A stretch of 64,000 bases of DNA, taken from the NCBI GenBank assembly GCA_963696295.1, contig CAVOJR010000002.1:1-64000 (forward strand). Direction: 5' to 3'. The stretch is from an uncultured Chlamydiae bacterium (GTDB lineage Bacteria > Chlamydiota > Chlamydiia > Chlamydiales > JAJFMB01). Shown piece after piece: positions 24,036 to 63,651 of this stretch. How positions within the stretch are numbered: the stretch's first letter is position 1; the number at the start of each line of letters is the position of its first letter. Under the pieces are notes generated by a model that did no database searches, was not told the DNA's origin, and was given only the letters and a program-made list of their open reading frames with translations. Position numbers and translations under genes: made by a program.

Positions 24036-24063
24036 TTCATTGATAAGTAATATCATGTTATTT
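24036..24063 (+). other. dif-like (XerC/XerD) site, degenerate
   Basis: TTCATTGATAA-GTAATA-TCATGTTATTT, 11-6-11 layout. Confidence 0.4.
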
Positions 24064-24483
24064 TTTGACATGCATTATTTGTTTATTATCGTATGAATAT
24101 ACCTTCCCCCATGTATATTTATGGATGAAGTGATCTTTTTTCTGTTCAAGGTCATAAGAAATACCTGTTATACTATCATTAACAATGATGACTTGTTTAC
24201 CTTGTTCTGTTCCGTCCAGTGCCGTCACAATTACTCCATCAGCGTAAACACCAACATGACACGTAACACCTTCTTCTGTTACGATATATCTGATGATATT
24301 TGTTTCAGTCTTTTCATCTTTCTTTGATTTTAGGTCTATCATGAAATCATTAATATCTTTGAGTAAACCAATTTCAAAGCCATGATCTGAAGGAGAACCA
24401 AAATTTTCCTCAACTGGAAGACTTGAAAAAGCATAACCAGAAACACATAATAAAGTTAATAAAACAGCTGTTAATTTTTTCAT
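24058..24483 (-). CDS. Hypothetical secreted protein
   Basis: MKKLTAVLLTLLCVSGYAFS signal peptide. Confidence 0.65.
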   Translation of the reverse strand: MKKLTAVLLTLLCVSGYAFSSLPVEENFGSPSDHGFEIGLLKDINDFMIDLKSKKDEKTETNIIRYIVTEEGVTCHVGVYADGVIVTALDGTEQGKQVIIVNDSITGISYDLEQKKDHFIHKYTWGKVYSYDNKQIMHVKK

Positions 24484-24543
24484 AAATTCACATTTTTAAT
24501 ATATAATAAAAATAGATTGTATTTGATTTTAATTTAAAGAGTC

Positions 24544-24927
24544 CTAACTCAAAGAAACACCTTTCACATATTCATTCTCATCGTACCAAACCTTGACACA
24601 GAAATATTCTACCTTATCAAGACCTTCAATAGGCGTCCCGACAGCTTCCCAAATCCCAAGGGTAGCAACATCAAGAACTCCATGCATTAAAGCTCTTGCA
24701 GCAGAACCGCGTTCATTTTTGAATTGGTAAACTTCAATCAAGTCACCATTTGGCATTCGGTCACTATTTATGATTTTTCCTCCAAGACAAATAAACTGGT
24801 TCCGAGTTTTGCATTGCTGAACTTTAGATATATTTGTTCCATCTTTCTTTGCTGCCATGACAACAGAACATGAAGAAAGAACGCATAATGAGATAAAAAT
24901 AAAACAAAAACAAAATAGTTTTTTCAT
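24544..24927 (-). CDS. Hypothetical lipoprotein
   Basis: MKK + hydrophobic stretch + LSSC lipobox. Confidence 0.7.
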   Translation of the reverse strand: MKKLFCFCFIFISLCVLSSCSVVMAAKKDGTNISKVQQCKTRNQFICLGGKIINSDRMPNGDLIEVYQFKNERGSAARALMHGVLDVATLGIWEAVGTPIEGLDKVEYFCVKVWYDENEYVKGVSLS

Positions 24928-25080
24928 TGTATTATAACCTTTTATATTTTTACATAAATCATTAAAACTTATTAACCATTAATTTAAAGACAACCTTGAA
25001 AATCATGGCTAACACATAAATGAAGGTATTATCAGAAATACTGGTATTTACTGTAAATTGATATGATTTTTTGAGAAGCT

Positions 25081-25513
25081 CTAAAAGGGAATGCCGTCTT
25101 CCTCGTTTTTCTCTTGAGCTCCTGAATGAGTGGACATGCTTGCGACATATTCGCCCTTTTCAGCAGACTCTGAGGAGGGCAAGAAGTTCACGTCAGAGAC
25201 AAAGATTGTTAGGTCGATTTCATGATTACAGTCTTTTAAACCAGACAGCTTGACGGCGTTTTCCCAGGCCGTACTTATGCCAGTGGGTCTTTTGCCATCT
25301 TTGCTTGGAAACACGTAATAGCTGAATATAGGCCTTTTAAGCCTCTCCTTACGCAAAAGGGCAACGAGGTTAGGATTTAGTGAGACGGACCGGGATTCCC
25401 CGTTCTTGGTCTCGCGGAATATGGCTATGGAGCGCTGAAAGTCGATATCCTCCCAGTGAAGATTGAGAATCTCCCCCTTCATTGCCCAGGTACTTAGCGC
25501 AAATAATACGAAA
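25081..25513 (-). pseudogene. Internal fragment of a phage-type tyrosine integrase
   Basis: FVLFALSTWAMKGEILNLHWEDIDF...ETKNGESRSV...AWENA; the box-I catalytic Arg position reads Met and no HxxR box follows. Confidence 0.8.
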
Positions 25514-25567
25514 TGCTAGAAGCGGGACTCGAACCCGCACGGGCCGAAGCCCAAGGGATTTTAAGTC
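25514..25567 (-). pseudogene. 3' half of tRNA-Leu(TAA); att-site remnant
   Basis: Minus strand GACTTAAAATCCCTTGGGCTTCGGCCCGTGCGGGTTCGAGTCCCGCTTCTAGCA contains the anticodon loop, long variable arm, T arm and 3' acceptor strand; the D arm and 5' acceptor strand are absent. Confidence 0.85.
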
Positions 25568-25585
25568 TCGCCTCGTTGACCTTGC

Positions 25586-25606
25586 TGACCTCGCCCCCAA
25601 AAACAG
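25586..25606 (+). mobile_element. IS3-family-like terminal inverted repeat
   Basis: TGACCTCGCCCCCAAAAACAG, 19/21 identical to the reverse complement of 28000..28020. Confidence 0.65.
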
Positions 25607-25627
25607 GTCCACTCTAATGTAGAAAAC

Positions 25628-26458: not shown

Positions 26459-26624
26459 GGGAGAAAACTGAATTTGAAGGAAAAAAAGATTTCCTTCATC
26501 CAGAGAAAGAATCCGGCAAACAAATGTCCCATTGATCAAAACCATTTTTAGAAATGTTTGAATGTAAGGATCAAAAATAGAACAGTAGAGGAATATAGAT
26601 TATTTAGAGTCAGCCACTTAATCA

Positions 26625-26652
26625 ACGCTCGATAATAAGGGTTATGTTGGAT
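26625..26652 (+). other. dif-like (XerC/XerD) site
   Basis: ACGCTCGATAA-TAAGGG-TTATGTTGGAT; the right arm resembles the canonical XerD arm TTATGTTAAAT. Confidence 0.6.
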
Positions 26653-26873
26653 GAAGACTCTTTTCCATCATCATTGCGTGATGATTTGTCGAATAGCATT
26701 AATTTCTTAAACTGAAATCGCGATCTAAGTATTGAAGGCTGGTTTTCTTGAGTGAATTCTATTTCGTGCAATAGCCCTCATTGCACCTTAAAAAATTCGA
26801 TTTTACACATTTTGTTGCTATCATTCATTATGTTTACATATAATCTTTTCTCATCCAGTTAACAGAGGTTCGT

Positions 26874-27302: not shown

Positions 27303-27309
27303 ATCTGCA

Positions 27310-28020: not shown

Positions 28021-28150
28021 CAATTTGGCCATGAAAAACTAATTAATTTTATAAAAAAAATATTAATTTATGGGTTAAAATGGGTTAATATAAAAAATCT
28101 ATTACTACATAATGTCATTAGTAATATAATGTGTAATTAGGGGGTGGAAA

Positions 28151-29159: not shown

Positions 29160-29292
29160 ATAGATTGAGTGCCTCTCCACACTCAGGGCTTCCAAAGAAA
29201 AGCCAATTCTTGCGCCCTATTTTCTTTATAAATATATTGACATTATAATAAAATTATAATAAAATTTGTACAATTAAATAATTGTAAAGATA

Positions 29293-32669: not shown

Positions 32670-32861
32670 TAAAATAGCTCATTAACTTCTCCCGCTAAAC
32701 ACATCAAAACTCTTCTCGGATTTAGCGCCTCCTGCGCCGACTTTGTACGACCTGAATCGGGATACTTCTCATGAGCATTTTGACATAAAGGCATGATTTT
32801 TAGTGCCATTTATTATCATAGCAGATAAAATGTTTGTTTTTTCTAAACAGGAAGAGGTAAA

Positions 32862-35072: not shown

Positions 35073-35235
35073 CCTCGCATCAGGCGACTAGAAAGTAGAA
35101 TCGATGGCATGACAATCATGGGCTTGCTGTCAGTACTTAGTCGGGTCTAAAGCCGGAAATTGCGCTTCCCGATTTTACAGTATTTTTTGAGGACTCGCCA
35201 TCAGATCAGAAAAAACAGCCGCGTCGATTCGATCT

Positions 35236-35883
35236 GTGGCATCGTCATTTGTCGAAGGCTTTGAGTTTTTCGACGATACAGCCGACCCATTTTCGATAAG
35301 GAATTGGGTGAAGCAGGAAGGCCCTGGCTGGTTATTCCTTGCTTGCAGCCCCAAGCAAAGAACTGTTATGCGGCCGCTGTTAAGCAGCTGGGTCTCCATC
35401 GTCACAAGATCCCTATTCGAGTTAAGTCCCTCTTTGGATAGGCGCATTTGGTTTGTTTTAGACGAGCTCCCAAGCATGCAAAGAATTAAAGACCTTGAGC
35501 TATTCCTTACAGAGTCTAGAAAATACGGCGGTTGCGGTCTAATCTCTTTGCAAAGCCCCTCACAGCTTGAGTCTATCTATGGCAGAGCTGTAACAGAAAC
35601 GATCATTTCCAATTGCAATACCAAGATCGTCTTTTCGGAAAAAACACCGAACATTGCAGAAGAGATCTCCCGTTCATTCGGGAAAAAAGTTAGCAAAGAA
35701 TTTTCTGAAGGCATATCGTATGGGGCTAACGATGTCAGGGACGGTGTCAACCTCTCCTCTCATTAAAAAGAGTCGCAATGCGTATCAGCCACGCAAATAC
35801 AATCCCTTAGCAAAAATACAGCCTATGTGAATCTCCCCGAAAACATGCCGATCGTAAAAATCAAGATGAAAATCGCCAAGTAA
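35236..35883 (+). pseudogene. traD: C-terminal fragment of an F-type conjugative coupling protein TraD
   Basis: FSIRNWV, WFVLDELPSMQ, ESRKYGGC, ISYGANDVRDGV; in-frame stop at 35764 then VSATQIQSL..AYVNLP; N-terminus missing. Confidence 0.8.
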
Positions 35884-45474: not shown

Positions 45475-45783
45475 CTGCCTTGAGGTCTAAGGTGTATGAT
45501 CTCAAACACAACATAATTATGATTTAAACAGAAAATATCACTTTGAAAAGCTTCTATAGTATGATAAGGAAAATTATTAATTTATATAGCAAATAGGGTT
45601 TACGTTATTTTTTCAGCCCATTATGAAGATTACTAATAATAATGTCCATAGGAAGAAACTGTTTAATAGAAAAATAATTTCTTGGTTTATCTTGGAAAAA
45701 CCTCTCTGAAATCTGATAACATTACATTGTTAATAATAAAAGACATGTGATATAAGTCTTAGATTTCAAGTTTAGGATTTGCC

Positions 45784-47576: not shown

Positions 47577-49712
47577 ATGAAATAATTTATTGAGGAATGG
47601 GCTCAAAAAAATAAAAATCTATTGCACAAGTTATTTTATATAGTGGTTGCGATAAATCTAACAGGTGCCCCATTTGTGAGGACCTGGTTAGCCGTGATGG
47701 AGGCTAGATTAGGCCAGCTGTTTCTGGCATAATCGGCATTGGAATGTCTTGTTGTGCTGATGCTGTAGAAATAGCAAATACCCCACTTGTATTAGATTTA
47801 CCATTGCCAGAATCTTTCTTTTCATTTGGTATTGCTCCGTCGCTTGGCTTCTTACCATGTTTGCATATGGAATTTGGTCTTGTTTAAGAGATTTCCTTAA
47901 AAGACATGATGAAAATGAAGAAAATTTCATTGAATAGAATGTGAGAAACAAAGATTAGAAGAACAGAGGTAAGAACAATAGGATCCATTCTTTAGACAAC
48001 CACTGGAGAGATGCAATGTGAGCCTGAATTTGTTTCTCAGAGACAATGAAATAACTTAGTTTGCTAAAAAGTAACTGATGAAATTATTTGGTGTTAAAAT
48101 TGGCCAGTAAGGGGCCTAAGATGGATGCCACAGCTCAAAAGGATGCAGGTAAATTGACACAAATTAAGTGGTTAGAGAAAAACTCTCAATCACAAAATTA
48201 GAAATTGGTCTGAAATTTGCTAAAAAATACAACATAATATTATCAAACATTACAGTTAACTTGGCCAGAACTTTTTAAGGAGATGAAAATATGAGAGATA
48301 TATTTAAAGATTTTTTAAAATCACCGACTCCAAGTCGCTTTGCAGAAATGTCAGCCATGTGGCCTTATTTAAGCGATGAATCAAAACTCTTATTTTTTTT
48401 GGAGAAAATCAAATAAAAAAGACCTTAGAATTCTAACTCATCTTATGAATAGTTTATGCCTATTATCTTTAGAGAGTGCCAATCCCTATATCCGTTACCT
48501 AGCTTCAAAAAATTATGTTTTTAACTTTGATTGGTCGAAGCATTTAGACGAAAAAGCAAGGAAGATGATAGAGAATGACTCACATCATTTGATGAAAAAT
48601 TTGCACCTAGAAAAAAATTATTCCTCTTTGGACTAAAACAGCAAGATTTTGAAAGTTTTTTACAATAGCTTGATCATCAAGCAAAGTTAGCATTTGTTAA
48701 AGCAGGAGAAATTTCTGTGGAATAAATTTTCAGAATTAATCTCATATTCTTGTATTAATACGGACTTCAATCACATAAGATATCTGAAAAAATCCCAAAA
48801 TATATGCAATTGTTTACAATTATTTATTCTTGGCTTATTAATTTGATCTAAATTGCACGAGCTAGCGAAAGTTGTGGATATGGAGCATATTGCCAAGCTC
48901 GACATATTCGAACAGATGTGGAAGTTGGTTCAAGTTGTTCCTGAAAATTGTGGCTTCTCTTTTGATTGTAAAATTACCTTCTCAAGATGGACATTTTCAC
49001 ATTAACAAGTATTCCCAAAGAGGTTCTTCAAGGCAATGTCCACATCAACTTGAAAAATTATTGTATCGATCTGATGTTTATCTTGAAATATTTCCAACGC
49101 ATTTGTTTTTAAACATTTGAAACCAATCAAATGATTTATCAGATAATTTGCTTTCAGCTGTGATGTCTCATAATTTTGAATTTAATTTAACATGATGAGT
49201 TTCTTCAAATTCTTGAATTTCCAAAAAATAAATCTCTCAAGATTTTATCTCTTTTATTGCTATCTGAAATGTCATAACCCTGTTATAACCTTTGCATCCT
49301 GGGATTATTTATTAGCCCAAAATTGGGAATACTATTGGTACCTAAAGACTTCGAAAAAAGAAAGGGGGAAATCCGCAGGATATTGAAAAGGGCCTTATTG
49401 AGAATTATCATGTAAGAAATCTACGACTTTAGATATGTCAGCAAAAATAATTATGCCTTGGGAAAAAGAAAATGCAGAAGCGTTAGATGGGCTAGCACAA
49501 CAAATTGGATTGAAGATGATAATTTACGGTTTTTACTACCTAGTATCAGCTATGGAAAAACCTGGGAAACTTACTGCTTTAAGGTATCAATAATGCATGG
49601 TATAGGGAATATAGAGAAGATGAGTCTAAAGATAAATCTTCTCCCAGAGATTCGGTATTACACTCCGCCCAGAAGTAGGCATATATACAATATGAGTCAT
49701 ATTATAAGATAG
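47577..49712 (+). pseudogene. Heavily degraded unknown gene(s)
   Basis: About 2 kb with only short, broken + strand frames; boundaries approximate. Confidence 0.3.
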
Positions 49713-49730: not shown

Positions 49731-49758
49731 GCACAACACAATTTATATTATCAGAGGC
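49731..49758 (-). other. dif-like (XerC/XerD) site
   Basis: Minus strand GCCTCTGATAA-TATAAA-TTGTGTTGTGC. Confidence 0.55.
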
Positions 49759-50184
49759 TAAATAAGCTCCTCGCAATATGCGTCTTCAGTGGAACTGGCT
49801 TTTGTGGATTCCATGCAATCCATGTGAATATATGAGTATGTAAGATGCAAAAAGAACCAAGGGACATACAAACAAAGGCAGGAAAAAGAGGGAAAAAGGG
49901 AATTTGGAAAAAAAAAAAGTTACTTTATCAAATTTATTGACCTGGATCAATAATAAATGTGTTGAATTTTAATTAAATATTACCATAAAATCTTATCCTT
50001 TAAATGGAGTTTGTAATGAATCGCGGTGGTTTTTCTTGGAAACGATTTTTTGGCATTTCTGCTTTTAAAGCGAAAATTTCAAGAACAGATTGGTATTCCC
50101 CTTACCAGATCTGCAAAGACAAAGAAAGATAAGGGCTCTTGTAGAAAGGCTTTTTCTTTTCTTCTTATCACGATGATGCTCGCC

Positions 50185-51615
50185 TTAGTCGTGCATTGTT
50201 TTCAGATTAGACTCTTTTGATCTTCGTGAACGTTCGGCTAGGGGAGATGGTTCTTGAACATGCTTCGAAGTGTTTGGCGCCAGCGGGTACCTCTTTTTGC
50301 AGGCACCAGAATATGTCCCGGACTTTTCTAGTAAAGACTGGAGGCGAGTAAATTCTGACTACTAAATAGTTTCTCTATCGCGATCCTGTGATGTTTTCTA
50401 CACTAGTGGGTTTATCGGTCAAAGGAGTAATGCTGGACTTACACTCTTTCAGCATCCTCAACCGCACCAAGCTCAACCCCGTATCCTTTTTCGTTAGGTT
50501 TTCTAACAACTATGCGCCCATTTTCAGCCCATGCGGTAGCTTAATTTCCCGAGCTTCATATCCAAGTTCAGATAGCCCTTTAAGCATAGCGGTTCTTCGG
50601 GCACTCCCCTGCCATAGCTTTTCCGTTTCTTCTTCTGCTACCCAAAGGCACATACCTTCATCGTAGAGCAGTTTACTTGAAGAAGTATCTTCAAGCAACC
50701 AATTGCTTTAGTGAGTAATGGTTTCTCCAAGGTCTTCAGCCTGTTTAGATTTTAGTCTATGCAGGTCGCTGCTAATTTCTCGCATGGATGTGATTGCTTT
50801 ATCTTTCGCTTTTCTTTCATTAGAGTGGGCCACTGGATCTATAATGAGAGAGTCGGTGAGGAGAGATCTACGACTAGCTGAAACGCAATTTTTTAAGAGA
50901 TAGAAGTAATGCGATCTAAGAAGGGTTTGACAAACGATTTATCCTCTGTTACTTCCAATTCAGCTACGAAGCTTATCCAGCTCAATGATCCTTCTCTAAT
51001 GATTTGGCATCATCATGTTGGACTTTCCAATCCGCTAGAGTTTTGAGCATCTCCCCTTCCGCCAACTTTTTTGAGAGCTCTTTTTGCAGCAGAGAGGTCA
51101 TGCTTTTTTGATCGGTTGAGCTCATAGTATATTCGGCTGAGATTCGGCTCAAAGTGGCGTTCATTGCAGCTCATAATTCTGCGTCATTCGCTGTGAGTGA
51201 TGATGAAGCAATGTCTAAGAGCTTTTCTGGGATTTGTCGTTGTATGGATTTAACTGTCGAGATAAGGGTCTCTGCTGGGTAATAACATCTAGTTGGTCTT
51301 CTCATGTTACGTTCATGTCTAAGCTTTCAGCAATAGCCTCGTCTCGTATTTGATTCATATCGGCTTGTAGGGACGGAGACTCCGACACCCCATTGTTTTT
51401 GCACGTCAAGAAACTGAAACTCTCGAACATTTTAATGATAGCAGAAAGCCTTTTCTCTATGGCCTTTTCTTCTTCCGCAGTTAAGGCATTGTATCTAGCT
51501 CGGAGCACCCACTCATCATTGTTTGATCGCATCTTGAAGGGTATCGATTCTGCCTCTGCAAATGGACATCACTTCTTGTTTGGTAGACTACGCGTACTAC
51601 CTTAGGGCCGCTCAT
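50185..51615 (-). pseudogene. Degraded coiled-coil protein, fourth gene of the ATPase/radical-SAM operon
   Basis: GGAGG RBS and ATG at 51615 (MSGPKVVRVV), helical fragments, RRTAMLKGLSELGYE; many frameshifts; end approximate. Confidence 0.55.
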
Positions 51616-54600
51616 GCTCTTTTATCCTCCGGAACCAGATTTAATGGGTTCTCCTGATAGCCTAACTCCCAATGTTTCTCCGATTACTATTTTTAATCGT
51701 TCCATTTCTTCTTTTCTCCGATGATACCACGCATAACTCGTCACTCTATGGACATGCGGGATTTCCATGCGCAGGACTTTAGGCCGCCAAACTTCACGAA
51801 GCTCTTGCCGTTTCTAAAATAGGGTGCGACAAATAGGCATCGAATTCTATTTCAATTCCATATTGTTTTTTTTTTTTTTTTTCTGTTCACTAAAACCAAA
51901 CCAAAAGCATCATTTTCTTTGATCGAAGGATGGTTTGAGTCCAAGACCTTTGATGAAAGTGGCGACGGATCTGGTAAAACCATCTTTGTCAAAATTTGAA
52001 CTTCCCTGTGAGGGGAAGGAATTTACAAGGGAAGCCATACTATCTAGAGATTTTCGAGCGGCTTCGACTCGTACTCCATTGTTGAGTTTAGAAGCATAGT
52101 CAAAGTAGGCTTGGAGATAAACTCTAGAGTTTTAGGGCAATGGCCTTTGGATATAGCATCTGAGATTTCGTTAATGGGTAAAGAAGTGACTATGATAATT
52201 TTTTCTCGGGCTTGCGTGTACAGCCTACATCTTCAAACGGCGCTCTCCACCGGTTTGGCCTAGAAGACCGAATCGTCTTCTGAAGGACCCTTGTTCATCT
52301 CTTCCAAAGGTTGAGCTGAAAATGATTACATCTCTTTGTTCCCTCTCAACGTTTTCCACGTTTTTCAACAAAAAAAGCTCGATATCTTCCCCTGCCTTGT
52401 TGGCGCTCTTTTTTTTGGCCTAAGGCTTGTCTCAAGGAGGCATCTCGATCGGCTCGTTCTGCTAGAACATCTTCTATCAGGTCTGCTTGTTTCGCGTTGA
52501 AGGTCACTACTACAACGCGAGGCCTTTCGGGATAATACCTAAACGTTCCGTTAACAAGTCCACGACCCTTTCGGCTTCTTCCCTATTCGTTTGGTTTGCG
52601 CGATACACTCGATCTACTCGTATAACCGCAAGAGGGCGAATGTTTTGAATTACATATTCTGGGTGTCTGACAGGCACGCTTAATTTATTGCCATAGAATG
52701 CCGCGTTCTAAAAGGCGATGAGTTCGCGATACTTTGAAGCTGATAGTGAATTTTTAGCATGGATCTCGGTAAAACGGTTTTTCCAAGAGCTAGCAAATCT
52801 CAGCAATTTTTAATTTCTCTTCTGTTCCAGGTGTCTTCTAGAGTCTCTCTTTCTGCATCACTGATCATTTCATCTAGGTCATCATCAATAGAAGTTGCCT
52901 CCTCATCGTCACCGAGTCGCTTCCCCTGCAAAAACGCTCGTGAGGGGGCATCTGTTACTCATCTCCACTGATGACGGTGCGTTTCGCCCGATATAGAGTT
53001 GGAAGAGCATTTTCTATGGGGATTTGACTTGCTTCATCGAAAATGATCACATCAAACATTCCAGCTCTTAAAGGAAGCAGTTGGCTTGCCGTGTCTGGAT
53101 TCATTAGCCAGACACGGACGCAGATGTACAAGCCCCATATCCCAACCACGTTCAATGACTTCTCAAATACTGACGAGCTCTCGAACACCTCCCAGGTGAG
53201 TGATATCCTCCCAATCCTCAGGAACTGTGACCATCTCTATATCCATAGTTGCAATGCCAATAACTTCTCATTCATTTCTCCTGACTTCTGTATTTGATTC
53301 GTCGAGAGTTTGGATTTTTCGTGAAAGCTCTTTTTGAGCAAGACGAAAAATCGGAAAGCTCTGCTCGATTAGGTCTTTCCAAGCAAGCCGAGCTTCACGA
53401 GCAATAATCCTTCGGATCACTATTTCTATTTCATCTTGAGCATATTCCCTTCCAGACAATTTTTCGTCTTTTTCCCCGAGACTGGCAAAGATCTTTAAGA
53501 TCTCCGGCAGAAAGATTAGGCGCTTGTAGGCGGAATTCTTGGTAAGCAGGGGAGGGGAAGGGCAGTGCTTCAACTAAAAGTTGGAGATCGAGAGAGATTG
53601 GATCGATTATTTCGAATATTGGCTTGGCAAAGCTCGAAAAAATAAGTTCAACAGAAAAAAATGTAGTAAGCCTGTTGAAAGCATCTAGTACTCTCGCATG
53701 GGACCTGGTGACGTTCAAAAGGTTTTCCGTAGCGAGATATATGATCTCGGGAGTCCGGATACACCTGTTTTAGACTAGTGGCTCAACTTCTTCTTGGCGA
53801 GGGCAAGCATGAAGGGCATGAATGCCTCTTTGTGCTAAAGATAGCTCTTCTAACATACACTATTAGTCATAAAAGCGTAACTCATTCAAATATATTGTCT
53901 TAGATGATTTTTCACTGTAGAGCATGTCAGAAAACTCTAAAGCTGTCTCTCGAAGAGGCTGCTGCTGGAGTTCTAGAGGCAGCTGCGCTCTGAAATGTTA
54001 TGATTCTTTCCAGGGGAACCGTAGTTCCTGGAGATCGTTCAGAACCTTTTGAGATCGTTCTGCAGTTCATATAGCGTAAAGGATTGAGAACGGGCTTAAA
54101 AAAGAAACTGGTGTGGTAGTACTCTTCGCCCATGAGAGCCATTTTTTTATGGTCGAGATAGGCATTTGAATGAGATGGCAGAAGATAGTTGTGAGTCATG
54201 ATCTTTTGAATCTGATGTACTTAAAAATGTTTTGAGCTCTTCAAGTCGGTCGGATGAGATCGCTATTACCTGCTGACTGTCCATTTTCGGGAAATAGTCG
54301 AAACCAGAGATGAGATATTCTTCCAAGTCGACTTTATGAAGAAGAGACTCATGTGATTTGATCCACTCTTGGCGAGGAGACGATATCTTCCACATCGAAG
54401 GATCCCCATCGACTGTGGCACTCATTCATCTCGTCTTTCTTCCTTCTTTCTTAATGAATGCAAAAAGAGAGCTGACGAATTCATTGACTAAAGCAGAATC
54501 GGGAGAAAAGATCTTGAGCTTGTCTAATGGATTTCCTTCAAAAGAGGACGTGTGAGCCAAATTCCGGCGATCGGAGAACATGTTTCTTCGATACCTTGTA

Positions 54601-57600
54601 AGTTGTTTTTGATCGAAATCTTTTAAAAGTCTTCTTAGAGCAGGGACATCAATCAATTTGAAGACTTCCCTCGGTCTTCTAGATCGATTAGCTCAGCGGA
54701 GAAGGGTTCGATAGCTTAGCCCCATTGCTTCGTCAGTTCTGTGGATTGCTGCATGGTGCTCTCATCCATTTCCATTTCCAGTTTTTCGATTTTCTCCGCG
54801 AGTTCTTCCCTTTCACGTTCTCACATTTTCTCGGCGGTACCGGCCCCTGAAGTCTTCTACTATCCTTTTCGATTCGAGTTCTGAGATTTTGTAAAACAGA
54901 GGTGCGATCTTTATTTACGTGTGTGAGGAAGCAAATAACAACTATCTTCTGCAATAATTTTTTCCCCATTTAGTCGTTTTGCGAGCAACTTCTAGGGCTG
55001 CACACTTTTTGAAAGACAACAACCATGCTGTCTGATTGTGACGATACAGTCTCCAATGATATTCACCATTGTTTTGCTTTTTCCTGTTCCTGTAGGCCTT
55101 CAGTCAGCAACCCTGGAGTTTGTCTTCGCGGAAAACAGCCTTTTCTTCAGAAGGATCGCTCTCCATCGTGAAGAAACGATCTTTTTCAGAAATCGAAGGC
55201 AGAGGGGGAGTAGCAATAGGATCTTTGTTCACTCGCAGTGCCGTTTCCATTCCTGTTCCACCAACCAGGGACTCTTTCCTCATTTGGCGTAAATCTTCTC
55301 CTATTGCCTGACCCATAAATTCAGCATGGAAGAGGACTGCAGAGCAAACCACTTGCCTACAACCGGCTTTCACTTTGTAATCACTATCCGGTAGAGCGCA
55401 TAGAGCCCTTTGGATCTGCTAGCGATCCGAAGGCATCAATCACGTCTCCGATACGGATCGCGGACCTTCCTAATAGCTCCTTAGCAGTTTCTGCCCATCT
55501 TTTCGCTTCTTCAGGACCAATCAGTCCAGAAAGAGCCGGATTCAGGCGTACTTCTTTTCTATCATGGTCAAAAAGGATGGAGACTCGATCCTTATTGTCA
55601 ATTTTAATGGGCCAGAGTAATAGGGGCGCAATTCTTGGTTTCTTTTCTGCAATCTCTGCACGACTATCTTTCATGACAAGGAACGGAAATCCAAGGTAAA
55701 GGCTATCGATACCTGTATCTCTCCTGTATGTTTTTGCATGGCTGACAAGATGACGCAGCCTTCGCTCAAGGTTAGAATCATCTTCGAAAGCCGCCCTATC
55801 GATTCCTACAGGAGCTTCTACTCTGCTGATCAGATGTTCAAGAATAGAGGTGGCAGTGGGTTTTTTCCCGGCAACTCCTGCTAGGTCGACTCGGCTAGAC
55901 TTCCCAATCACCATTCTGACAAGGGTGCCTCTTTGCGCAAGACTTGCCGTTCGCTTTTCAAAAAACTCGAGGATCGTAGAGACATATTGTTGGCGATCAG
56001 GCTCTTGCCAAGATTCTTTTGGGATGGATAGAAGCACTAACGCTCGGGGCAATGAGATTCTACGCTCAATTCTGAAATCGTAGGCCCATTCATCGATACG
56101 AGCGATTCCACATTGAGCGAAATTGGCTGTCCTTTCTTCGATTTCCCGATAAAGATTTCTTCTTGAAACTTCAAACCATTCTCTTGCAGCCGAATCTTCA
56201 TAGGTAGAAACTTCAGCTTGTGCAGCAACGGTTTTGGCCTGACTTAGAATTAGTTCGAGCGGTTGATATTGTTGAGTCGCAGCTCCTAAAAGAACCATCA
56301 ATTCTTCATCGGTAATCTTCTGGCGATCCATCAATGAATTCAGTCCACCATGATCCGATCCTGGGTAGAGGCGGCGATGCATTCCCCACTGTTTCTCTAG
56401 GTTTGGACGCGATGAAGCGAGAGCTAGAAGTCTGAAACTTTCTTCACTTAATTCAATTTCAAGAGCCTTAGCTCTTTCCCGCGCTCTTATCTCGCGATCA
56501 TGGAGATCGCAAAGGTGCCTCTCTCTATTCATTTGGCGGAGATGCCCAATGAGAGGGCCGGTGATGAGTTCGTAGCCTTGAACTGGATTTTGTAGCATCC
56601 ACGCGGAGTTAACAATCTCCCCTTGATAAATCAGCGGCAAACTTGGATTCATCCACATCAGGGCTAAGGCATGCCTAAAAGTCTTCATGAAGTGAATCTA
56701 TTGAAGTTGCGAGTCGAACTCCAGCTACCATCTTTGGATCAGCTTTCCTGTCTTCTAACCAAGTGGCTATGACACCTCGTAAGAGGAGATCTTTTGCTTG
56801 TTCCCAGTTCGAAGCTTCAGCTGCTATTAAGGCATATGCTTTGGGACAGGTGTAGGAGAGATCTTTAAACTCTAAAGCGGGGCCGCTTTTCGTTTCTTCG
56901 GACTTCGTATCTGAAGGGGCTTCAACAGGCTCCCCTGCTAACCAGCTTTGTACTTGGGACCATTGCCAACGTTGATCAGGATCCCTAGCTAACAAACCCC
57001 GAAGGAGAAGGAGAATAGAGGGATCGATACCCTTAGGAAGATAAACTCCTCTGGTTACTACGTGAATTCTGAATGCTTTTTCATTGATGCCTTCAAAACA
57101 TGAGCCTGTTGTGATAAGCTGAAGGATTATCATCCCTAAGCTCCACCAATCGGAAGCCACACTGATACCTCCGGCGATCACCTCTGGCGCTACATATAGA
57201 GCTGAAGTAGGCTGTTTGACTGTATCAAGGTCGAAAGTAGAAAGACGGCTATATTGAAAGCCGCTTAACATTAAGTTCAGGGGATCTCTTTGGGAAATGA
57301 AAATGGTTTCTGGCCGAAGGTTGTTATGTCGTAAACCCTTTTCAGAAAAAGAAGACAAGATTTTACTCATCGATTTAACGATTTGTTGAACAGTCGCTAG
57401 TTCTACAGAGGTAGATTGAAGATCAAGGAGATTTGGGTGGGAGATAAGATCGGTGACATCATATCTTCGACACTCCCATACGCCTTGCGCCAAAAGTTCT
57501 GGTACATGGTCTTTTGGCAGTCGCTTTAAAATTTCATAAATGTCTGGTTCAGGGTGTGTGTCAGTGAGATATAAAGTCAGGAGCGCTCTGTGTCCATGTC

Positions 57601-57961
57601 CTTCAACAATAAAACTCTCAAAGGGTTCATTGGTAGTTTCCAGTCGGTCGATGACAGTCCATCCATCAATGATCGCTTCCTTTTCTTGAGGTAAGGTTTC
57701 TTCATTGACGATACTGAGTTCTGTTGCGACAGTAGCCCCACATTTTAAACACATCTCATCATGAGGATCTAAAGGGTGGCCATTGGAGCAAAGGCGGGTG
57801 TGCTCTGTGGGATTTGAATCCTCAGGAGTTGGATCAACTTGACCGGGAGGTCTCGGTGGTTCTTGTATGAGAACCCATGCGCAGTTTCCGCAGAGCACTT
57901 CTTCAGCAGGGCGCTCTTCTCTACATCCTGGGTTTGGGCACTTACGGACATAGAGTGTCAT
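51612..57961 (-). pseudogene. Frameshifted giant gene: zinc ribbons, Ser/Thr-kinase-like domain, DUF4011-like domain, SF1 helicase
   Basis: CPNPGC/CGNC/CSNGH/CLKC; YVAPE..SDWWSLG; one extra T near 56678 splits EDF|RHALAL; RDTGIDSLYLGFPFL..APLLLWP..LNPAL; GPTGTGKS near 55090; FDVIIFDEASQ..ISGDE at 52955..53188; VIIFSSTFG near 52320. Confidence 0.8.
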
Positions 57962-58613
57962 AGATCTTCTCCCTGGTAGAGCTTTCGTCCTGTGTGGTTA
58001 CAGCAAGATGGCCCTCTTTTGCTAAGATAGTCTTTAAGCGACGCATATCATCGCGCCTAGGAATACCAGCAAGCCAAATGGCTCCGGCTTCATCAAACAT
58101 AATATCAAAAGTCTTATCCGATGACTTAAAGGCTCGATCGAAAGGACGGAATCGAGTTTCTCCTAGAGGGGTAAGACAATGGAGACGTTGGTTATCGCTC
58201 CCGCGTAAAGCAAGAGTTTGTGGGGCATTTTCATCATACGGGTCTGAGATCAAGGCATCGATTGTTCCCTGACATTTTTCAACCGTAGGGGTGATCTTTT
58301 CAAAAGGGTGTCCGCTATAGACGAGAATGTCGATACTCGTTTTAGAACGAGTTTGTGCCAAAAGATGGATGAGAGCTTCGGGTTGATCGAAGGGTTCACC
58401 TCCAGAAATCGTGATCCCATCTGCTTCCTGAAGCCAAGGAGAGATCACATTCATAATTTCATCGACAGATACACCGCCTTTCCCGGTTCCCCATGTGTCG
58501 GCTGAGACACATCCCTTACAACGAATAGAGCATCCTTGAAACCAGATCCCAATACGGCGACCTGGCCCCAATGTTGTAACTGGGAAGTGAATCCTGGAAA
58601 GGTAGAGCATCAT
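57942..58613 (-). CDS. Radical SAM protein, NrdG/activase-like (single 4Fe-4S cluster)
   Basis: LGPGRRIGIWFQGCSIRCKGC (CxxxCxxC), TISGGEPFDQ, LRGSDNQR. Confidence 0.9.
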   Translation of the reverse strand: MMLYLSRIHFPVTTLGPGRRIGIWFQGCSIRCKGCVSADTWGTGKGGVSVDEIMNVISPWLQEADGITISGGEPFDQPEALIHLLAQTRSKTSIDILVYSGHPFEKITPTVEKCQGTIDALISDPYDENAPQTLALRGSDNQRLHCLTPLGETRFRPFDRAFKSSDKTFDIMFDEAGAIWLAGIPRRDDMRRLKTILAKEGHLAVTTQDESSTREKIYDTLCP

Positions 58614-60469
58614 AATGTCACACTCTCTGTGGTCAGGCTAAGCTTAGTGACCTTACCAGTTTCAACGGAACGAATAGAAAGCCGACTACCCGTTTCAATG
58701 TTTTCATCGAAAAGAGCACGAGAAAGAGGATTTACTAGATGGGTTTCAATTTTATTACGAATTCCCCGTCCTCCGTTCGATAAATCTTTTAAACAAAGCT
58801 CTCTAAGTGTTTGCAGAGCCGTTGGATCGATGGAGATATCGATGCCTTGAGATCCTTTCAGATCTGATAGTACGCTATCCACCATGCTCTTGAAGATTTG
58901 CTCAGCTATGTTTTCGCGAATGAAGTCGAATACGATGATATTGTCTCCGATCCGGTTGAGAATTTCAGGGCGATTGAGAGTCAATTTAAAATGTTTCTCA
59001 ATCTCCTCGCGGATGCGTTTTTGGATGTTCTCAAACGAATCTTCTGGTGAAACGGTTGCTTTTCTTTCGCCTGTAATGTCAGTTTGATAGATTCCCAGAT
59101 TCGAAGTAAAGACGATGAACGCCTCTGTAAAATAAACTCTTTCCCCTCTTCCTGACGTCAAAACACCGTCATCTAGAATCTGGAGAAATTTATCGAGGAT
59201 TCTTGGATGAGCTTTTTCAATCTCGTCAAAGAGAACTACGCTAAAAGGCTTTTCCCGAATCGCATTGGTCAATTCTCCTCCCATATCATATCCGACATAG
59301 CCGGGAGGAGCTCCGATCAAACGTTGATCTGAATGTTCAGCACTGAATTCCGACATGTCAAAGCGGATGTAAGCGCTTTCATCGCCAAATAAAAGGCTTG
59401 TTATCGATTTAGCAAGCTCGGTCTTTCCCACTCCGGTTGGCCCAGCTAAAAAGGCAACGCCTCGAGGACGTCCACCACGGCGAGGAGCTCCTACTCCAGT
59501 CACAGCGCGCTTGATAATATCGAGCATGTGAGCGACTGCGTGATCTTGACCTTTGACCCTTTCCATAATGAAATTCTGTCCATCGCGAATCTTTCTACGG
59601 TCGAGCTTTTGCCAGGGATCTTCGGAAACTCCCACTTTATAACGACGCACGGCTTCTCCAATCTTGGCGTATCCTAATTTCTCCTCACGACAAAGTTGTG
59701 CAATCAACATGAGATCGACGAGAAGGAGTCCTTCAGTGTTATCTACAAAACTTTGAATGGCAGTATCTTTTAGCTGTGCTGAAGCTTCTTTTGCCCCATC
59801 AAGTGACTGAATCAAGGACTTTGCTAGAACTTGACGCATTTGATGATCAGGATTTGGAATGGAAATATGGCGAACTTTAGAATTATCAAGAGTAAACCAG
59901 TCTGGCATGTCCCCTTCTTTCTCCACGATCCATAGGACAGTATTAAAAAAAGGTTTAGGCGGTGTCCCATGCGCACGAACGCGTGCTTCCTGAGATCGAA
60001 TCAGCGCCCGTGTAAAAAGCCGGTGCTCGCTATCAGTGAGATTATTTTGGTGAATAATAAGCCGGGATGCGAAATCGACAATTAAAGCTATAGGCTCACC
60101 TTTCCATGCAATCAGTTGTTCTAGGACTTGTTCAAAAAGATCTAGGCCAGCTGGGGCACATCCGTTGACCGGCTGGAGTCCCAGTTGCTTCATGACGTTT
60201 TCAGCAGATTCACGACCTTGTTGAACGGACATCGGGTCGATTAATTTAAACCCATTGATGAAGTCGTAACTCAAAACATGAGGGTAGCCATAGCTTCGAA
60301 GATCTGCATTTAAACAGGAAGTGAAAGAACGCACAACAGCTCCGCCCGATTTATCTTCTGTTTGTAGGTCGCGTACATTCCCTGAAAGAACAAACTGACT
60401 TTTCAATGGCAAAAAACGAAGAAGATCGCGCAGCCATTTTAATTTTCGAGTTTCAAAGTCATTAATCAT
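58610..60469 (-). CDS. ClpB-D2-like AAA+ ATPase with a degenerate N-terminal P-loop-like domain
   Basis: GPTGVGKTELAK, FDMSEF, LIGAPPGYVGY, LFDEIEKAHP, RPEILNRI; lacks the Clp N-domain and an intact D1. Confidence 0.9.
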   Translation of the reverse strand: MINDFETRKLKWLRDLLRFLPLKSQFVLSGNVRDLQTEDKSGGAVVRSFTSCLNADLRSYGYPHVLSYDFINGFKLIDPMSVQQGRESAENVMKQLGLQPVNGCAPAGLDLFEQVLEQLIAWKGEPIALIVDFASRLIIHQNNLTDSEHRLFTRALIRSQEARVRAHGTPPKPFFNTVLWIVEKEGDMPDWFTLDNSKVRHISIPNPDHQMRQVLAKSLIQSLDGAKEASAQLKDTAIQSFVDNTEGLLLVDLMLIAQLCREEKLGYAKIGEAVRRYKVGVSEDPWQKLDRRKIRDGQNFIMERVKGQDHAVAHMLDIIKRAVTGVGAPRRGGRPRGVAFLAGPTGVGKTELAKSITSLLFGDESAYIRFDMSEFSAEHSDQRLIGAPPGYVGYDMGGELTNAIREKPFSVVLFDEIEKAHPRILDKFLQILDDGVLTSGRGERVYFTEAFIVFTSNLGIYQTDITGERKATVSPEDSFENIQKRIREEIEKHFKLTLNRPEILNRIGDNIIVFDFIRENIAEQIFKSMVDSVLSDLKGSQGIDISIDPTALQTLRELCLKDLSNGGRGIRNKIETHLVNPLSRALFDENIETGSRLSIRSVETGKVTKLSLTTESVTL

Positions 60470-60852
60470 TCTAATATTCCAAGGTAAATAAATTAATTAA
60501 ACAGTTCGGTTAATATTATTTTTTAGATCAAAAAAACATACATGTTTATTGCATTATATTCAATGAATGATCTTGTTGTCAATTTGTTTTTAAATGTTAC
60601 TGCTAATGAATAAACAATTCATCATCACGACATTGCAATTTTTTATGTTGGATAAAAATCCCTTATGGATAAGGCATGAGACCTTCGGAGACATAACTAA
60701 AAAAGAGCCTCTCTCAGACACAACGACAATTAAAATTCCCTGTCAGCGACAATTATTATTCCCTTCGCTGCAATTGTAATATCCTACCCATATGAACTAT
60801 CTTGATTTTCCGAATTATTATAAACAAGAAGAGAAGGAAATAATAGTATTGT

Positions 60853-60918
60853 TGTAATGGTCCCCTAAATTAGGACCATCTGTTAAGGTTATAGCCTCCT
60901 AGACCTGGAGGACAAAAT
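60853..60918 (+). mobile_element. Possible isolated IS3-family left end
   Basis: TGTAATGGTCCCCTAAATTAGGACCATC followed by a GGAGG RBS with no ORF. Confidence 0.3.
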
Positions 60919-60933
60919 CAACTTAACCCCTCA

Positions 60934-60961
60934 ACACACCATAACCTATCTTATCAGTCGG
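60934..60961 (-). other. dif-like (XerC/XerD) site
   Basis: Minus strand CCGACTGATAA-GATAGG-TTATGGTGTGT, preceded by GTCAGCCACTTAA at the same spacing as at the 26625 site. Confidence 0.6.
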
Positions 60962-61425
60962 TTTTTAAGTGGCTGACAGTAAATAATCTCCACCCTCTCT
61001 TACCTATATGATAAACACCGATCAAAAATTAAGGTGATAATTGCGAAGTAGGTTTCAGGCTAGCAATCCAATATTCCTTATGAATATTGTAAATATGAGA
61101 AACCTAACCAGCAGCATTTCTCATTCTTGTACTCCCCCTTCCAAAGTTCAAGCAACATGAGTGGTGGGTATTACCTTTTTTCAAAGGTTGATGGGTTAGG
61201 TACAGAACTGATAATCAACAACTAAAGGCTATTGCATTAATTTCAAGGAGGGTGATACAGTATATAATTTCATGTATTATCCGACCTTGAATGTGACCAT
61301 CCTAGCCGTTGAATTTAAAAAGCTAAGCAAAAAATTGGTTGATTTATCACTATAGCTCTGTTTTCATAAAATGTGAATATTATAAAATATGAAATTAATA
61401 ATGAATTAAATAGGATTAATAGTAA

Positions 61426-63549
61426 ATGAAAGCGTCAAAAGCAGAATTCCTGGAATTATTAAAGAAGTCAACTCAATTCGTTATTCCCATCTATCAACGC
61501 ACATATTCATGGACAGAGAAGGAGTGTCGACAACTATGGGATGATATTATCGCATGTGGAAGAAACAATAATATTCCAGTCCATTTTATCGGTTCCATTG
61601 TTTATGTGGAAAGGGGGTTGTCACAAGTGACTAATCAGGAGCCTTTACTCGTCATTGATGGACAGCAACGTCTTACCACTTTGACGCTTTTATTGGCTGC
61701 TTTATCAAAAGCTGTAGGCACAACGGAGCCTTTTGATGGATTTTCTCAATTCAAAATTTGCAAGGATTACTTACTGAATCCTAAGGAGACAGGTGAGCGG
61801 CGTTACAAACTTTTGCTCACCCAAACGGATAAAGACACCCTTAAATCATTGGTAAGCGAACAACCCAAACCGCACAGTCATTCCCTGCGAATAGAGGAGA
61901 ATTATACTTTGTTCCAAGAGTTGATCAGGAGAGAAGGGGGTGATTTGTTGGATCTTTGCAAGGGTTTGACCAAGCTAGTGGTGGTAGACATCGCCTTGAA
62001 CCGAGAGCAGAATCCGCAGCTCATTTTTGAAAGCATGAATTCAACTGGAAAAGAGTTGAGTCAAGCGGATTTGATCCGCAACTTTATTTTGATGGGGCTT
62101 GAACAGACACTACAAACTCGTCTTTATGAAAATTACTGGCGACCAATGGAGGTGAATTTCGGACAGGAAAACTATGCCTCCCATTTTGATGAATTCATGC
62201 GTCATTACTTAACTGTAAAAACGGGGGATATACCCAATATAAATGATGTTTATGAAACTTTTAAGAAATATGCTCTTAAGCGGGCTGATGCAGTAAGTAA
62301 TGATAGTCATGTGGAGTCACTGCTCAATACAATCAAAGATTATTCGGAGTATTTCTGTGCAATATCCCTAGGCAAGGAGACCGATAAGGAATTGAAGATG
62401 GCGTTTAATGATTTGAGTGAATTAAAGGTTGATGTGGCTTGTCCCTTCCTAATGGAACTGTATTGTGATTACAAGAAAGACATCTTTAGCAAAGGGGATT
62501 TTGTACAAGCTGTTAGATGGGTGGAAGCGTATGTGTTTCGCCGGGTAGTTTGTGAAATACCCTCTAACTCGATGAACAAGACTTTTGCGTCTTTTATTAA
62601 GGCACTTAAAAAAGACCGTTATCTGGAGAGCATTGCCGCGCACTTTCTTCTATTTTCTTCGCAGCGTAGATTTCCAAGTGATGATGAGTTTGAGAACCGT
62701 ATTCAAGTCCGGAAACTATACAAGTTACGTAACCCCAAATACTGTTTGCGCCGTATTGAAAATCACGGGCGAAAGGAATGCGTTCCTGTAGATGATGAAT
62801 ACACTGTAGAACATATCATGCCGCAAAATGAAAATCTGAGCGCAGCTTGGCAGGCGGAACTGGGAAGCGAATGGAAACTCGTTCAGCAAACTTGGCAGCA
62901 TACATTGGGCAACCTGACACTCACTGGCTATAACTCGGAATATCGTGATCGGCCATTTATTCAAAAACGGGATATGGACGGTGGATTCAAAAACAGTCCG
63001 CTCAATTTAAATAAAGATCTGAATCAGGTGACTGTTTGGAACGAATCGGCGATTAAGGAGAGAGCAAACCGACTTGCCAAACAGGCGGTAGTAATATGGA
63101 ACTCACCAAAATTGGACGAAAGTATTTTGGCTGGTTATCGACCCAAAGTTAAACCGGGATCTGAATATACAATAAACGACCATCCATCCCTACTTAACTC
63201 GCCATTGCGTACCCTGTTTGAGGCGTTTAGGACAAAAGTATTAGAACTTGATCCACCATACATCAGGGAAGAGTGGTTAAAATATTATGTGGCTTACAAA
63301 GTCGAAACAAACTTTGTGGATGTTATGCCAAAGCCACAGTTGAGGCGCTTACAACTTTCATTAAAAATGAGTATTTCCGAGGTTAATGATCCCAAAAAGT
63401 TATGTAAAGACGTGTCCCGTGTGGGTCATATGGGAAATGGTGATGTCGAAGTCTCATTATCTTCACTTGAGGATTTGCCTTATGTGATCGAGTTAGTCCA
63501 GCAAGCTCTTGAAAAGCAATTGGTAGGGGTCTCAATTCATGAGAAATGA
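61426..63549 (+). CDS. GmrSD-like protein (DUF262 + DUF1524 HNH + C-terminal DUF5655-like domain)
   Basis: IPIYQRTYSW, IDGQQRLTT, IFESMNSTG, EHIMPQ, LGNLTL..YN; C-terminal KYYVAYK..GHMGNGDVE. Confidence 0.9.
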   Translation: MKASKAEFLELLKKSTQFVIPIYQRTYSWTEKECRQLWDDIIACGRNNNIPVHFIGSIVYVERGLSQVTNQEPLLVIDGQQRLTTLTLLLAALSKAVGTTEPFDGFSQFKICKDYLLNPKETGERRYKLLLTQTDKDTLKSLVSEQPKPHSHSLRIEENYTLFQELIRREGGDLLDLCKGLTKLVVVDIALNREQNPQLIFESMNSTGKELSQADLIRNFILMGLEQTLQTRLYENYWRPMEVNFGQENYASHFDEFMRHYLTVKTGDIPNINDVYETFKKYALKRADAVSNDSHVESLLNTIKDYSEYFCAISLGKETDKELKMAFNDLSELKVDVACPFLMELYCDYKKDIFSKGDFVQAVRWVEAYVFRRVVCEIPSNSMNKTFASFIKALKKDRYLESIAAHFLLFSSQRRFPSDDEFENRIQVRKLYKLRNPKYCLRRIENHGRKECVPVDDEYTVEHIMPQNENLSAAWQAELGSEWKLVQQTWQHTLGNLTLTGYNSEYRDRPFIQKRDMDGGFKNSPLNLNKDLNQVTVWNESAIKERANRLAKQAVVIWNSPKLDESILAGYRPKVKPGSEYTINDHPSLLNSPLRTLFEAFRTKVLELDPPYIREEWLKYYVAYKVETNFVDVMPKPQLRRLQLSLKMSISEVNDPKKLCKDVSRVGHMGNGDVEVSLSSLEDLPYVIELVQQALEKQLVGVSIHEK

Positions 63550-63623
63550 AAAAAATGGCTTATCCTATTTTTAAGACGTTTCAAAGGCCAATGCAAGCCC
63601 GTTCTGTTCAAACGCACCCCTTA

Positions 63624-63651
63624 ACACAACATAATTATTATTATCAGTCTT
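63624..63651 (-). other. dif-like (XerC/XerD) site
   Basis: Minus strand AAGACTGATAA-TAATAA-TTATGTTGTGT. Confidence 0.6.

Follow-up and report, generated by a model that had tools for sequence, protein, structure and literature searches.

An uncultured Chlamydiae bacterium (working label G000) carries an array of XerC/XerD dif-like sites in a chromosomal island that holds defence genes along with remnants of plasmids, integrative elements (ICE) and insertion sequences. The array lies in the window, by which we mean the whole 64,000-nucleotide stretch of DNA analyzed here, bases 1-64000 of contig C2 (135,310 bp, 43% GC) in a genome of two contigs and 3.43 Mb. Four intergenic sites, at 26625, 49731, 60934 and 63624, and a decayed fifth at 45506 stand at or near the borders of cargo segments, 348-385 kb away from the host dif. 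Extra dif copies at the borders of foreign defence blocks, far from the real dif, suggest that XerC and XerD of the host once took part in acquiring the blocks. We lean, by a modest preference, towards reading the sites as scars of Xer-mediated integration of plasmids or circles, now mostly locked.

Each of the four sites shows the 11-6-11 layout of XerC arm, spacer and XerD arm proposed in an earlier note on this DNA, and all seven sequences listed there, three of them weaker, are present where it placed them. The site at 26625..26652 (+; ACGCTCGATAA-TAAGGG-TTATGTTGGAT) agrees with the host dif arms at 8/11 and 9/11 positions, and that at 49731..49758 (−; GCCTCTGATAA-TATAAA-TTGTGTTGTGC) at 9/11 and 9/11. 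The XerD arm at 63624..63651 (−; AAGACTGATAA-TAATAA-TTATGTTGTGT), the right end of the defence block, is that of the host dif, and the fourth site, with mosaic flanks described below, lies at 60934..60961 (−; CCGACTGATAA-GATAGG-TTATGGTGTGT). An inner ATAA-N6-TTAT palindrome set in host-like arms is complete in 26625, 60934 and 63624, and 49731 carries one inner change in its XerD arm. The sites at 45506, 49731, 60934 and 63624 are all on the minus strand and thus form four direct repeats, to which 26625 is inverted. On a map of open reading frames (ORFs) and domains, the four best sites bracket the GmrSD gene and the Mrr region as the note had claimed. Judged by their sequence, we consider the four sites to be genuine XerC/XerD dif-like sites by descent and weakened copies of the host dif.

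Two profiles were used to score the genome, one built from six distinct published chlamydial difs only, the other from 16 sites, none from G000, the added ones having been chosen with an earlier profile that included the host dif. In the phylum-wide search, relatives' matches coincide with the dif positions listed for Chlamydia in the accessible part of Kono et al. (PMC3025954), in agreement with the organism being one of the Chlamydiota. With the first profile, the highest score anywhere in the 3.43-Mb genome is that of 63624 (22.9 bits; 24.3 with the second); the host dif is third (20.4 bits), 26625 fourth (19.7; 20.6 with the second) and 60934 sixth (16.8; 19.4), and 49731 reaches 13.0 and 15.3 bits. 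Contig C1 (3,298,190 bp, 47% GC) holds just two sites of at least 17 bits with the second profile, one of which is dif; three such sites within 40 kb have a probability of ~2.5e-4 against an AT-matched background. Similarly, the first profile finds three hits of at least 16 bits in the window compared with a mean of 0.19 over 200 local shuffles. The core pattern YGATAAN6TTRTGKTG, which was tuned on these sites, has four matches, and 0 of 100 shuffles gave any. The genome scan with a position weight matrix that the note had recommended thus finds the island enriched, at a level that is not the background of AT-rich DNA. A sequence at C1:979775 scores 20 bits with a broken GAGAA core and therefore demonstrates that high scores can arise by chance; because of this core it was not counted as a dif-like site.

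The sole site on C1 that we called strong, C1:3021565-3021592 (−; GCGTCCGATAA-TGTATG-TTATGTTGTGT), is taken as the true host dif. Polarized octamers flip there, from 6:1 in the 3.00-Mb bin to 3:9 in the 3.02-Mb bin, and its spacer TGTATG also occurs in a genome of the same family (G301; here and below, G-numbers denote compared genomes and L-numbers loci). The GC-skew maximum lies 109 kb beyond it, on a flat stretch. The comparison with the chromosomal dif that had been called for bears the note out, as the best window sites match the arms of C1:3021565. Both recombinases that such sites require of a host are encoded on C1: XerD matches TIGR02225 above the cut-off, and XerC has TIGR02224 as its best match with a score of 320, slightly under the cut-off of 335.

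Contig C2 is itself chromosomal and is joined at one of its two ends to C1, which it follows in reverse, because a single 163-aa gene is divided between the C2 end and the C1 end without a gap. The protein P0121 (163 aa), encoded on an independent contig of 9.5 kb, agrees with the C2 end at 23/23 residues and with the C1 end at 138/139. In addition, ORFs of the plasmids pSn and pPNK found no match to ParA, pgp6 or DnaB on C2. Together with the split gene this rules out C2 as a plasmid, so that the plasmid location that defines a plasmid dif (pdif) does not apply. Read along the chromosome, four of the window sites run opposite to dif and one runs in the same direction. A single site at the polarity switch of the terminus, as expected for resolution of chromosome dimers, is a property of C1:3021565 and not of the window sites.

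The arms, spacers and flanks of the sites carry further information on their history. For the arms we used 25 reference sites from relatives, a comparison that is partly circular since each was the best of its locus. Inner arm positions of the window sites depart from the consensus at 1/40 and outer positions at 9/48 (P=0.019, which overstates the contrast, given that the inner core had served to find the sites). Of the references, 24/25 have GTC at XerC-arm positions 3-5, compared with 0/4 window sites. The spacers match one another at 0-4 of 6 positions, with the exception of 45506 and 63624 (5/6), and match the dif spacer at 1-3 of 6.

The XerC-side flank of 26625 (26595..26624, +) contains the 13-mer GTCAGCCACTTAA, which occurs at two places in the genome only, at the same offset from 26625 and from 60934, just as the note had reported. 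Over 30 bp these two flanks are identical at 24 positions, compared with a maximum of 20 among 300 pairs of relatives' difs. The resemblance noted between 60934 and 63624 on the XerD side also stands, with 7/10 identical positions against a null maximum of 6. Site 60934 is therefore a mosaic, its XerC flank resembling that of 26625 and its XerD flank that of 63624, the outcome expected of a crossover between sites that differ. By analogy, the shared 30-bp flank could also be a site for an accessory protein. Among GTDB genomes, GTCAGCCACTTAA followed by GATAA has 20 other matches, about the number estimated for chance, which we rejected since 19 have no XerD-like arm and one (L069) overlaps a gene end. 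The same combination was not found in viral contigs, nor was a stricter pattern in metagenomes. A site of the 60934/63624 type with its XerD flank (at most 3 mismatches) occurs in 4/300 other genomes, each time as a single site with an ordinary GTC arm.

The three weaker copies listed in the note fared differently. At 45506..45533 (−), the left end of the 18-kb defence block, a perfect host XerD arm (TTATGTTGTGT) is joined to the spacer TCATAA and a ruined XerC arm. As a whole site it scores at background level (4.5-6.7 bits), whereas its parts support the listing: besides 45506, the XerD-arm 11-mer is found in the genome at the host dif and 63624 only, the spacer is the one that agrees with 63624 at 5/6, and a GC change point at 45494 (interval 45267-45541) coincides with the site, GC falling from 40% to 32%. 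The right end of an IS3-type insertion sequence (IS) lies 30 bp away, and the GC step could also come from the IS. We rejected 24036, whose score of 6.1 bits is background and is reached ~14 times per 64 kb of C1. The sequence at 25009, with its 9-bp spacer, scores 0.6-4.6 bits and overlaps a promoter-like TTTACA-18-GATAAT match (25009..25057, −) after the end of an ssb gene. The promoter-like match and the ssb end before it recur in two related C1 islands whose cargo differs and which lack any XerD arm. The most plausible reading of 25009 is a promoter.

Direct repeats divide the 18-kb defence block (45506-63651) into three segments that contain, in order, Mrr, a decayed helicase-kinase operon and GmrSD. 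Successive segments across the four direct sites have GC contents of 0.40, 0.32, 0.44, 0.40 and 0.45. In the first (45506-49731, GC 0.324) are an Mrr-type type IV restriction gene (45784..47274, +; PF04471; PADLOC mREase_IV) and a broken gene without a Pfam match that we call Y (48300..49660, +), whose homology stops ~90 bp before 49731. The second (49758-60934, 44% GC) is occupied by a candidate defence operon recognized by its Pfam domains, module X (50016..60471, −), made up of a small gene, a broken 461-aa gene, a broken kinase-DUF4011-helicase gene, a radical SAM/4Fe-4S gene and a ClpB-like AAA gene. To its right is a 65-bp left-end stub of an IS (60853..60917, +) that is 94% identical to C1:1462821-1462885 and ends 16 bp before the XerD arm of 60934. 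The C1 element encodes HTH_Tnp_1 and rve, and IS pieces with these domains are what we take to be IS3-type. The third segment (60961-63624, 40% GC) has as its sole long ORF between two direct sites an intact GmrSD-family gene (61426..63549, +; Pfam DUF262-DUF1524-DUF5655). This gene was not found in 299 other Chlamydiota genomes at E<=1e-30, and its closest relatives, at 71-72%, are proteins of other phyla, some of them named Nitrosomonas. As judged by these comparisons, it is foreign to Chlamydiota.

The scorings of the GmrSD protein, the GmrSD segment DNA, module X and the DNA around 26625 cover the compared genomes without G005. Module X is found in 4/299 other scored genomes, as one 10.3-10.5-kb block in G159 (81%), G271 (80%) and G226 (71%) and as pieces at ~75% in G255. 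In G255, the AAA gene is immediately preceded by a homologue of gene Y in the same orientation; in G000, gene Y is at the opposite end of module X and convergent. The break between Y and X falls within the 49640-50000 gap that holds 49731, and homology to module X begins at ~50000, 245 bp from the site. At the other edge, the G159 homology enters the first 38 codons of a TM0106-like gene and stops at ~60720; the IS3-type stub follows, with the site 16 bp beyond it. Overall, breaks in synteny and GC lie 0-450 bp from sites. The DNA of the GmrSD segment is matched by 30/300 other scored genomes, the strong matches being just at the neighboring APH gene, and 0/19 relatives' loci scanned there have a site of at least 11 bits. 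The relatives compared for breakpoints and modules are distant (59-81% identity), which makes the test of breakpoints and modules a weak one. The note's expectation that synteny breakpoints would fall at the spacers was thus borne out in part: in four distant relatives the breaks are near the sites, but none maps to a spacer.

Module X (L198, L199, L200, L247) moves among four families of Chlamydiota at 71-81% DNA identity and is intact in the relatives and broken here; in full, its helicase gene is a kinase-DUF4011-helicase-MTES_1575 fusion. The very small gene at 50016-50150 also stands behind other defence-like operons in G002 and G258 (vWA, phosphatase-like and kinase by inspection) and occurs in G182 and G280 as well.

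Chlamydial plasmids are the likely source of the window sites, to judge from their own dif-like sequences. Of the three large chlamydial plasmids, two carry one near-perfect, intergenic site: pSn of Simkania (NC_015710; L075:46626-46653) and pCs1 of Criblamydia (NZ_LK031773; 50660-50687, with a weaker match at 42647); pPNK does not. G179 and G088 each have a further site, located in pCs1-like DNA and behind the same gene. A consensus search of IMG/VR matched 74 contigs, 63 of them outside ORFs as called with a crude ORF caller, compared with 23 matches for a control pattern, of which 4/20 scored were outside ORFs. Many of the 74 contigs are GC-rich, and the consensus is therefore not private to Chlamydiota. 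Four of the 74 loci share at least 12 proteins with pCs1, and the pCs1-like elements of these contigs and of G179 and G088 are phage-plasmids carrying one copy of dif. Across the phylum, the core pattern tuned on the window matches in 170/301 genomes, mostly once, with G000 having the most (5); by a hand count, 36 other genomes have 2-4 matches. No cluster like that of G000 was seen in the 11 of these 36 that were inspected, five of which had two strong sites. Five extra pattern matches at viral loci and in relatives that fall inside ORFs were treated as chance.

Multiple dif-like sites were also observed in other settings. The genomes G068, G087 and G133 have two strong sites each, on separate contigs or far apart, and in G087 and G133 one of the two is beside toxin-antitoxin-like genes. 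A complete 72.8-kb phage (G315), and also L314, has five dif-like sites in 3 kb among small phage genes (L363:5438-8494), with spacers that are all different and one inverted and four direct copies, the polarity pattern of the window; none occur elsewhere in the phage. The viral contig L316 (G316:C1:28498, 33491, 34497) has two strong and one weak direct sites within 6 kb.

The remainder of the island, from 26652 to 45506, contains putative effectors (ankyrin, ubiquitin hydrolase), plasmid relics and IS3-type ends. The relics include a TraD fragment (35194..35880, +; 58% to plasmid pPNK) and a HigA-like sequence (32319-32669; 90% to pPNK), and a serine resolvase (44854-45411) lies near the TraD fragment. 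Further left, a copy of the 3' end of tRNA-Leu(TAA) (25514..25567, −), which is an attachment (att) sequence and not dif, is 98% identical to C1:2157071-2157124 and its att duplicate. Adjoining it is an integrase fragment of a tRNA-targeted element (25238-25512), the integrase being intact in a C1 island. Two broken tyrosine recombinase genes are found at 22.5-25.5 kb, and IS3-type ends at 25586, 27650-28007, 45475 and 60853. The DNA around 26625 matches other genomes just in IS pieces and short stretches, and the window from 18.5 to 26.4 kb has no match to plasmids. The tRNA-Leu att with its integrase, the IS3-type ends and the resolvase indicate that recombinases of at least three further kinds took part in building the island. 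Consequently, the note's proposal of Xer accretion survives for sites at or near module borders that match the host dif, but not for the whole island, given these features and the plasmid relics of its left part.

From the identity, position and cargo of the sites we infer the crossovers, their order and the locking as follows. Chlamydial plasmids and phage-plasmids would carry one dif-like site for dimer resolution, at which the host XerCD would have joined dif-bearing circles, either on a plasmid or after entry into the chromosome. From every such event two direct copies would result, with their flanks exchanged. The outermost sites, 45506 and 63624, with identical XerD arms and near-identical spacers, may represent attL and attR of the 18-kb block; 49731 and 60934, which lie between them, may be older joints inside the donor. 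Locking would be due to the ruined XerC arm of 45506, the unlike spacers of the other sites and the loss of GTC from every XerC arm. In such a locked array, FtsK-activated XerCD would be unable to remove the cargo or to recombine it with dif.

Several observations weigh against this model. Around 49731 the breaks are ~90 bp away on one side and 245 bp on the other, and those near 60934 are 16-210 bp away; none is at a spacer, and the IS3-type stub intervenes between the break and 60934. No empty or rearranged allele came to light in the material compared, which included no close relative and no sequencing reads. The best GC change point near 49731, at 50168, is ~410 bp off the site, and IS3-type ends are 30 and 16 bp from 45506 and 60934. 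No dif-like site was found near the edges of module X in the 4 relatives (the left edge in G271 being a contig end), and a convincing site adjoins GmrSD relatives in 0/80 metagenome loci. The shared flank together with a site occurs nowhere else in three collections (GTDB genomes, viral contigs and metagenomes). The plasmids pPNK and pWc and the 6.3-kb Chlamydiifrater plasmid have no site of at least 15 bits, and a 5/6 spacer match among 10 pairs has an estimated chance of about one in ten. Finally, ftsK (G000:C1:2237640-2239996, L404) is in two frames owing to a frameshift in the assembly, which may be error or biology. No intact FtsK of the same organism was found, the best full-length match being 91%, and the other core genes compared alongside looked whole. 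The case comes from a single genome with a decaying array in which none of the crossovers is mapped.

A rather unlikely alternative is that each site is the dimer-resolution site, or a copy of it, of a different plasmid or phage-plasmid and that XerCD made no joint. The pieces would then have been fused by IS3-type elements, the resolvase, deletions and the tRNA-Leu integrase, and the XerC arms would have weakened through selection against live extra difs on the chromosome or by plain decay. The plasmid relics in the window, the single sites of pSn and pCs1, the four IS3-type end positions, the breakpoints away from spacers and the movement of module X among Chlamydiota without sites are all consistent with this account. 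It demands, however, that four or five independent sites survive in 37 kb, four of them sharing one orientation and each standing at a segment border, while their backbones vanished, with no match to ParA, pgp6 or DnaB on C2. Moreover, it leaves the swapped flanks at 60934 unexplained.

Improbable, too, is a working system in which host XerCD still cuts out, inserts and rearranges individual defence cassettes, GmrSD for example, despite unlike spacers and perhaps helped by an activator. In its favour, the GmrSD gene is unbroken and of foreign origin and has the interval between two direct sites with related arms to itself, inner arm bases are kept, and Xer can be active on imperfect sites when an activator is present, according to the accessible part of PMC9226527. 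Yet the two spacers flanking GmrSD agree at 1/6, whereas excision in Acinetobacter requires identical or one-off spacers in the accessible text of PMC13141974. Pseudogenes also make up much of the cargo, and the cluster is the single one in the genome and has no counterpart among the multi-hit relatives inspected. Still harder to credit is that the sites serve another protein (a tyrosine recombinase of an element, or a regulator), are promoter -10 boxes or arose by chance in AT-rich spacers. Broken tyrosine recombinase genes do lie nearby, GATAAT resembles a -10 box and does account for 25009, and C1:979775 reaches its high score with a broken core. Against this, the asymmetric arms reproduce the host dif position by position and two XerD arms agree with it at 11/11, the clustering is significant relative to AT-matched DNA and the integrase at 25.2 kb belongs to the tRNA att. 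Scars of Xer-mediated integration thus remain our preferred reading.

We compared the array with known Xer systems as far as the accessible parts of the cited papers describe them. Like the chromosomal dif-module islands of Acinetobacter (PMC12907356, PMC6449649), it has several intergenic 11-6-11 sites of host type away from the main dif, with conserved inner bases and with variation in the outer bases, the XerC arm and the spacers, and cargo between the sites, a plasmid origin and no recombinase of its own. Several intergenic sites in an accessory region that bound cargo, as in an Acinetobacter-type module, are present here. It differs in belonging to Chlamydiota, in having 4/5 sites direct where C/D and D/C alternate in Acinetobacter, and in its segments, which are 2.7-11 kb of partly decayed defence genes. 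The same module between sites was also not found elsewhere (4 module X relatives and 80 GmrSD loci, all distant). The order +,-,-,-,- does not alternate, and only the exception termed 'CD fusion' fits (PMC13141974). Of the Acinetobacter cointegrate types, 8/10 carry direct pdif pairs with identical spacers (PMC13141974). Rep_3 plasmid cointegrates (PMC13141974, PMC11705084) resemble the array in their direct pairs with near-identical spacers and decayed sites, and the fused 'CD modules' of the same papers are likewise bounded by two sites of the same orientation. Unlike these cointegrates, the array is chromosomal, has no Rep backbone on its contig and has one spacer-compatible pair among 10 (45506/63624), of which one member, 45506, is ruined. 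The parallel that the note had drawn with Acinetobacter plasmid pdif therefore holds for sites that bound modules but not for a chromosomal contig with direct repeats, mostly unlike spacers and breaks away from them.

Integrative mobile elements exploiting Xer (IMEX; CTX, VGJ, TLC, GGI, LME-1; PMC5357621, PMC9765430) integrate by host Xer and leave direct repeats, one of them weakened, which stabilizes the element; in LME-1 it is a modified downstream dif that does so (PMC9765430). Direct dif-like repeats with one weakened copy are what we find in 45506 and 63624. IMEX sit at the chromosomal dif, however, in contrast to the distant array with its four inverted sites and its spacers so unlike that of dif, and the weak arm is XerD in GGI and TLC and XerC here. 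Pfam and PADLOC recognized no replication, transfer or Xer-activation genes of the array's own between the sites, no search having been aimed at XafT. The single plasmid Xer sites cer and psi (PMC5357621) are paralleled by the one host-type site on each of pSn and pCs1 and not by five sites on one chromosomal stretch. In IS1202/ISAba32-type insertion at Xer sites, the left end of the IS is 5-6 bp from the XerC arm (10.1101/2022.12.17.520857, accessible part); we rejected it here, as the IS pieces are IS3-type and 16 and 30 bp from the XerD arm. We file the array under neither dif modules nor IMEX because site orientation and module recurrence disagree with the former and position with the latter. 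By analogy, it would work most like the Acinetobacter chromosomal dif islands and the direct pairs of Xer cointegrates, with an IMEX-like weakened flank.

Multiple dif sites with modules have been called characteristic of Acinetobacter (PMC6449649, accessible part). The note knew of no such description for Chlamydiota, and the literature that we searched, mostly non-subscription, likewise contained no report of an extra dif or pdif in the phylum and no mention of the dif copies on pSn and pCs1. A phylum-wide study of chlamydial plasmids found frequent gene flow between plasmid and chromosome, and 'xer' is absent from its main text (PMC7846284). We tentatively suggest, with some doubt, that Chlamydiota may own an Xer route of gene capture, in which host XerCD strings one-dif plasmids and phage-plasmids together head to tail as arrays of defence cassettes, and loss of GTC from the XerC arm then fixes these arrays on the chromosome. 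If true, this route would be a missing mechanism for plasmid-chromosome gene flow in the phylum, and environmental chlamydiae could gain landing pads in these sites. The presence of host-type Xer sites on two named plasmids, in a phage-plasmid family and in a chromosomal defence island makes for a testable route of gene flow in obligate intracellular bacteria.

Other features of the region deserve mention. The stretches 25586-26458, 27650-28007 and 45437-45475 are termini of an IS3-type element of 1218 bp that is present on C1 in five copies, and a 276-aa gene at 25628 begins with the IS start codon. Window positions 19100-25570 belong with C1:2157042-2174322 and C1:388054-393480 to a family of tRNA-targeted islands that have a common ssb end, promoter and small regulator and differ in cargo. 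A candidate defence cluster without dif-like sites (window 7441-18075) comprises a C5 methylase, Vsr, an SNF2 helicase and three unknown genes and adjoins a TM0106-like nuclease-helicase. The putative ubiquitin-hydrolase effectors at 32862-35039 and C2:65095-66729 are 90% identical over 1 kb and bracket a 30-kb stretch that starts at the TraD fragment and may have inserted between tandem paralogues. Just outside the defence block is a Vat/CatB-like acetyltransferase (43815-44453; below all cut-offs), and just beyond its other end an APH-family phosphotransferase (C2:63773-64672); both are widespread in Chlamydiota.

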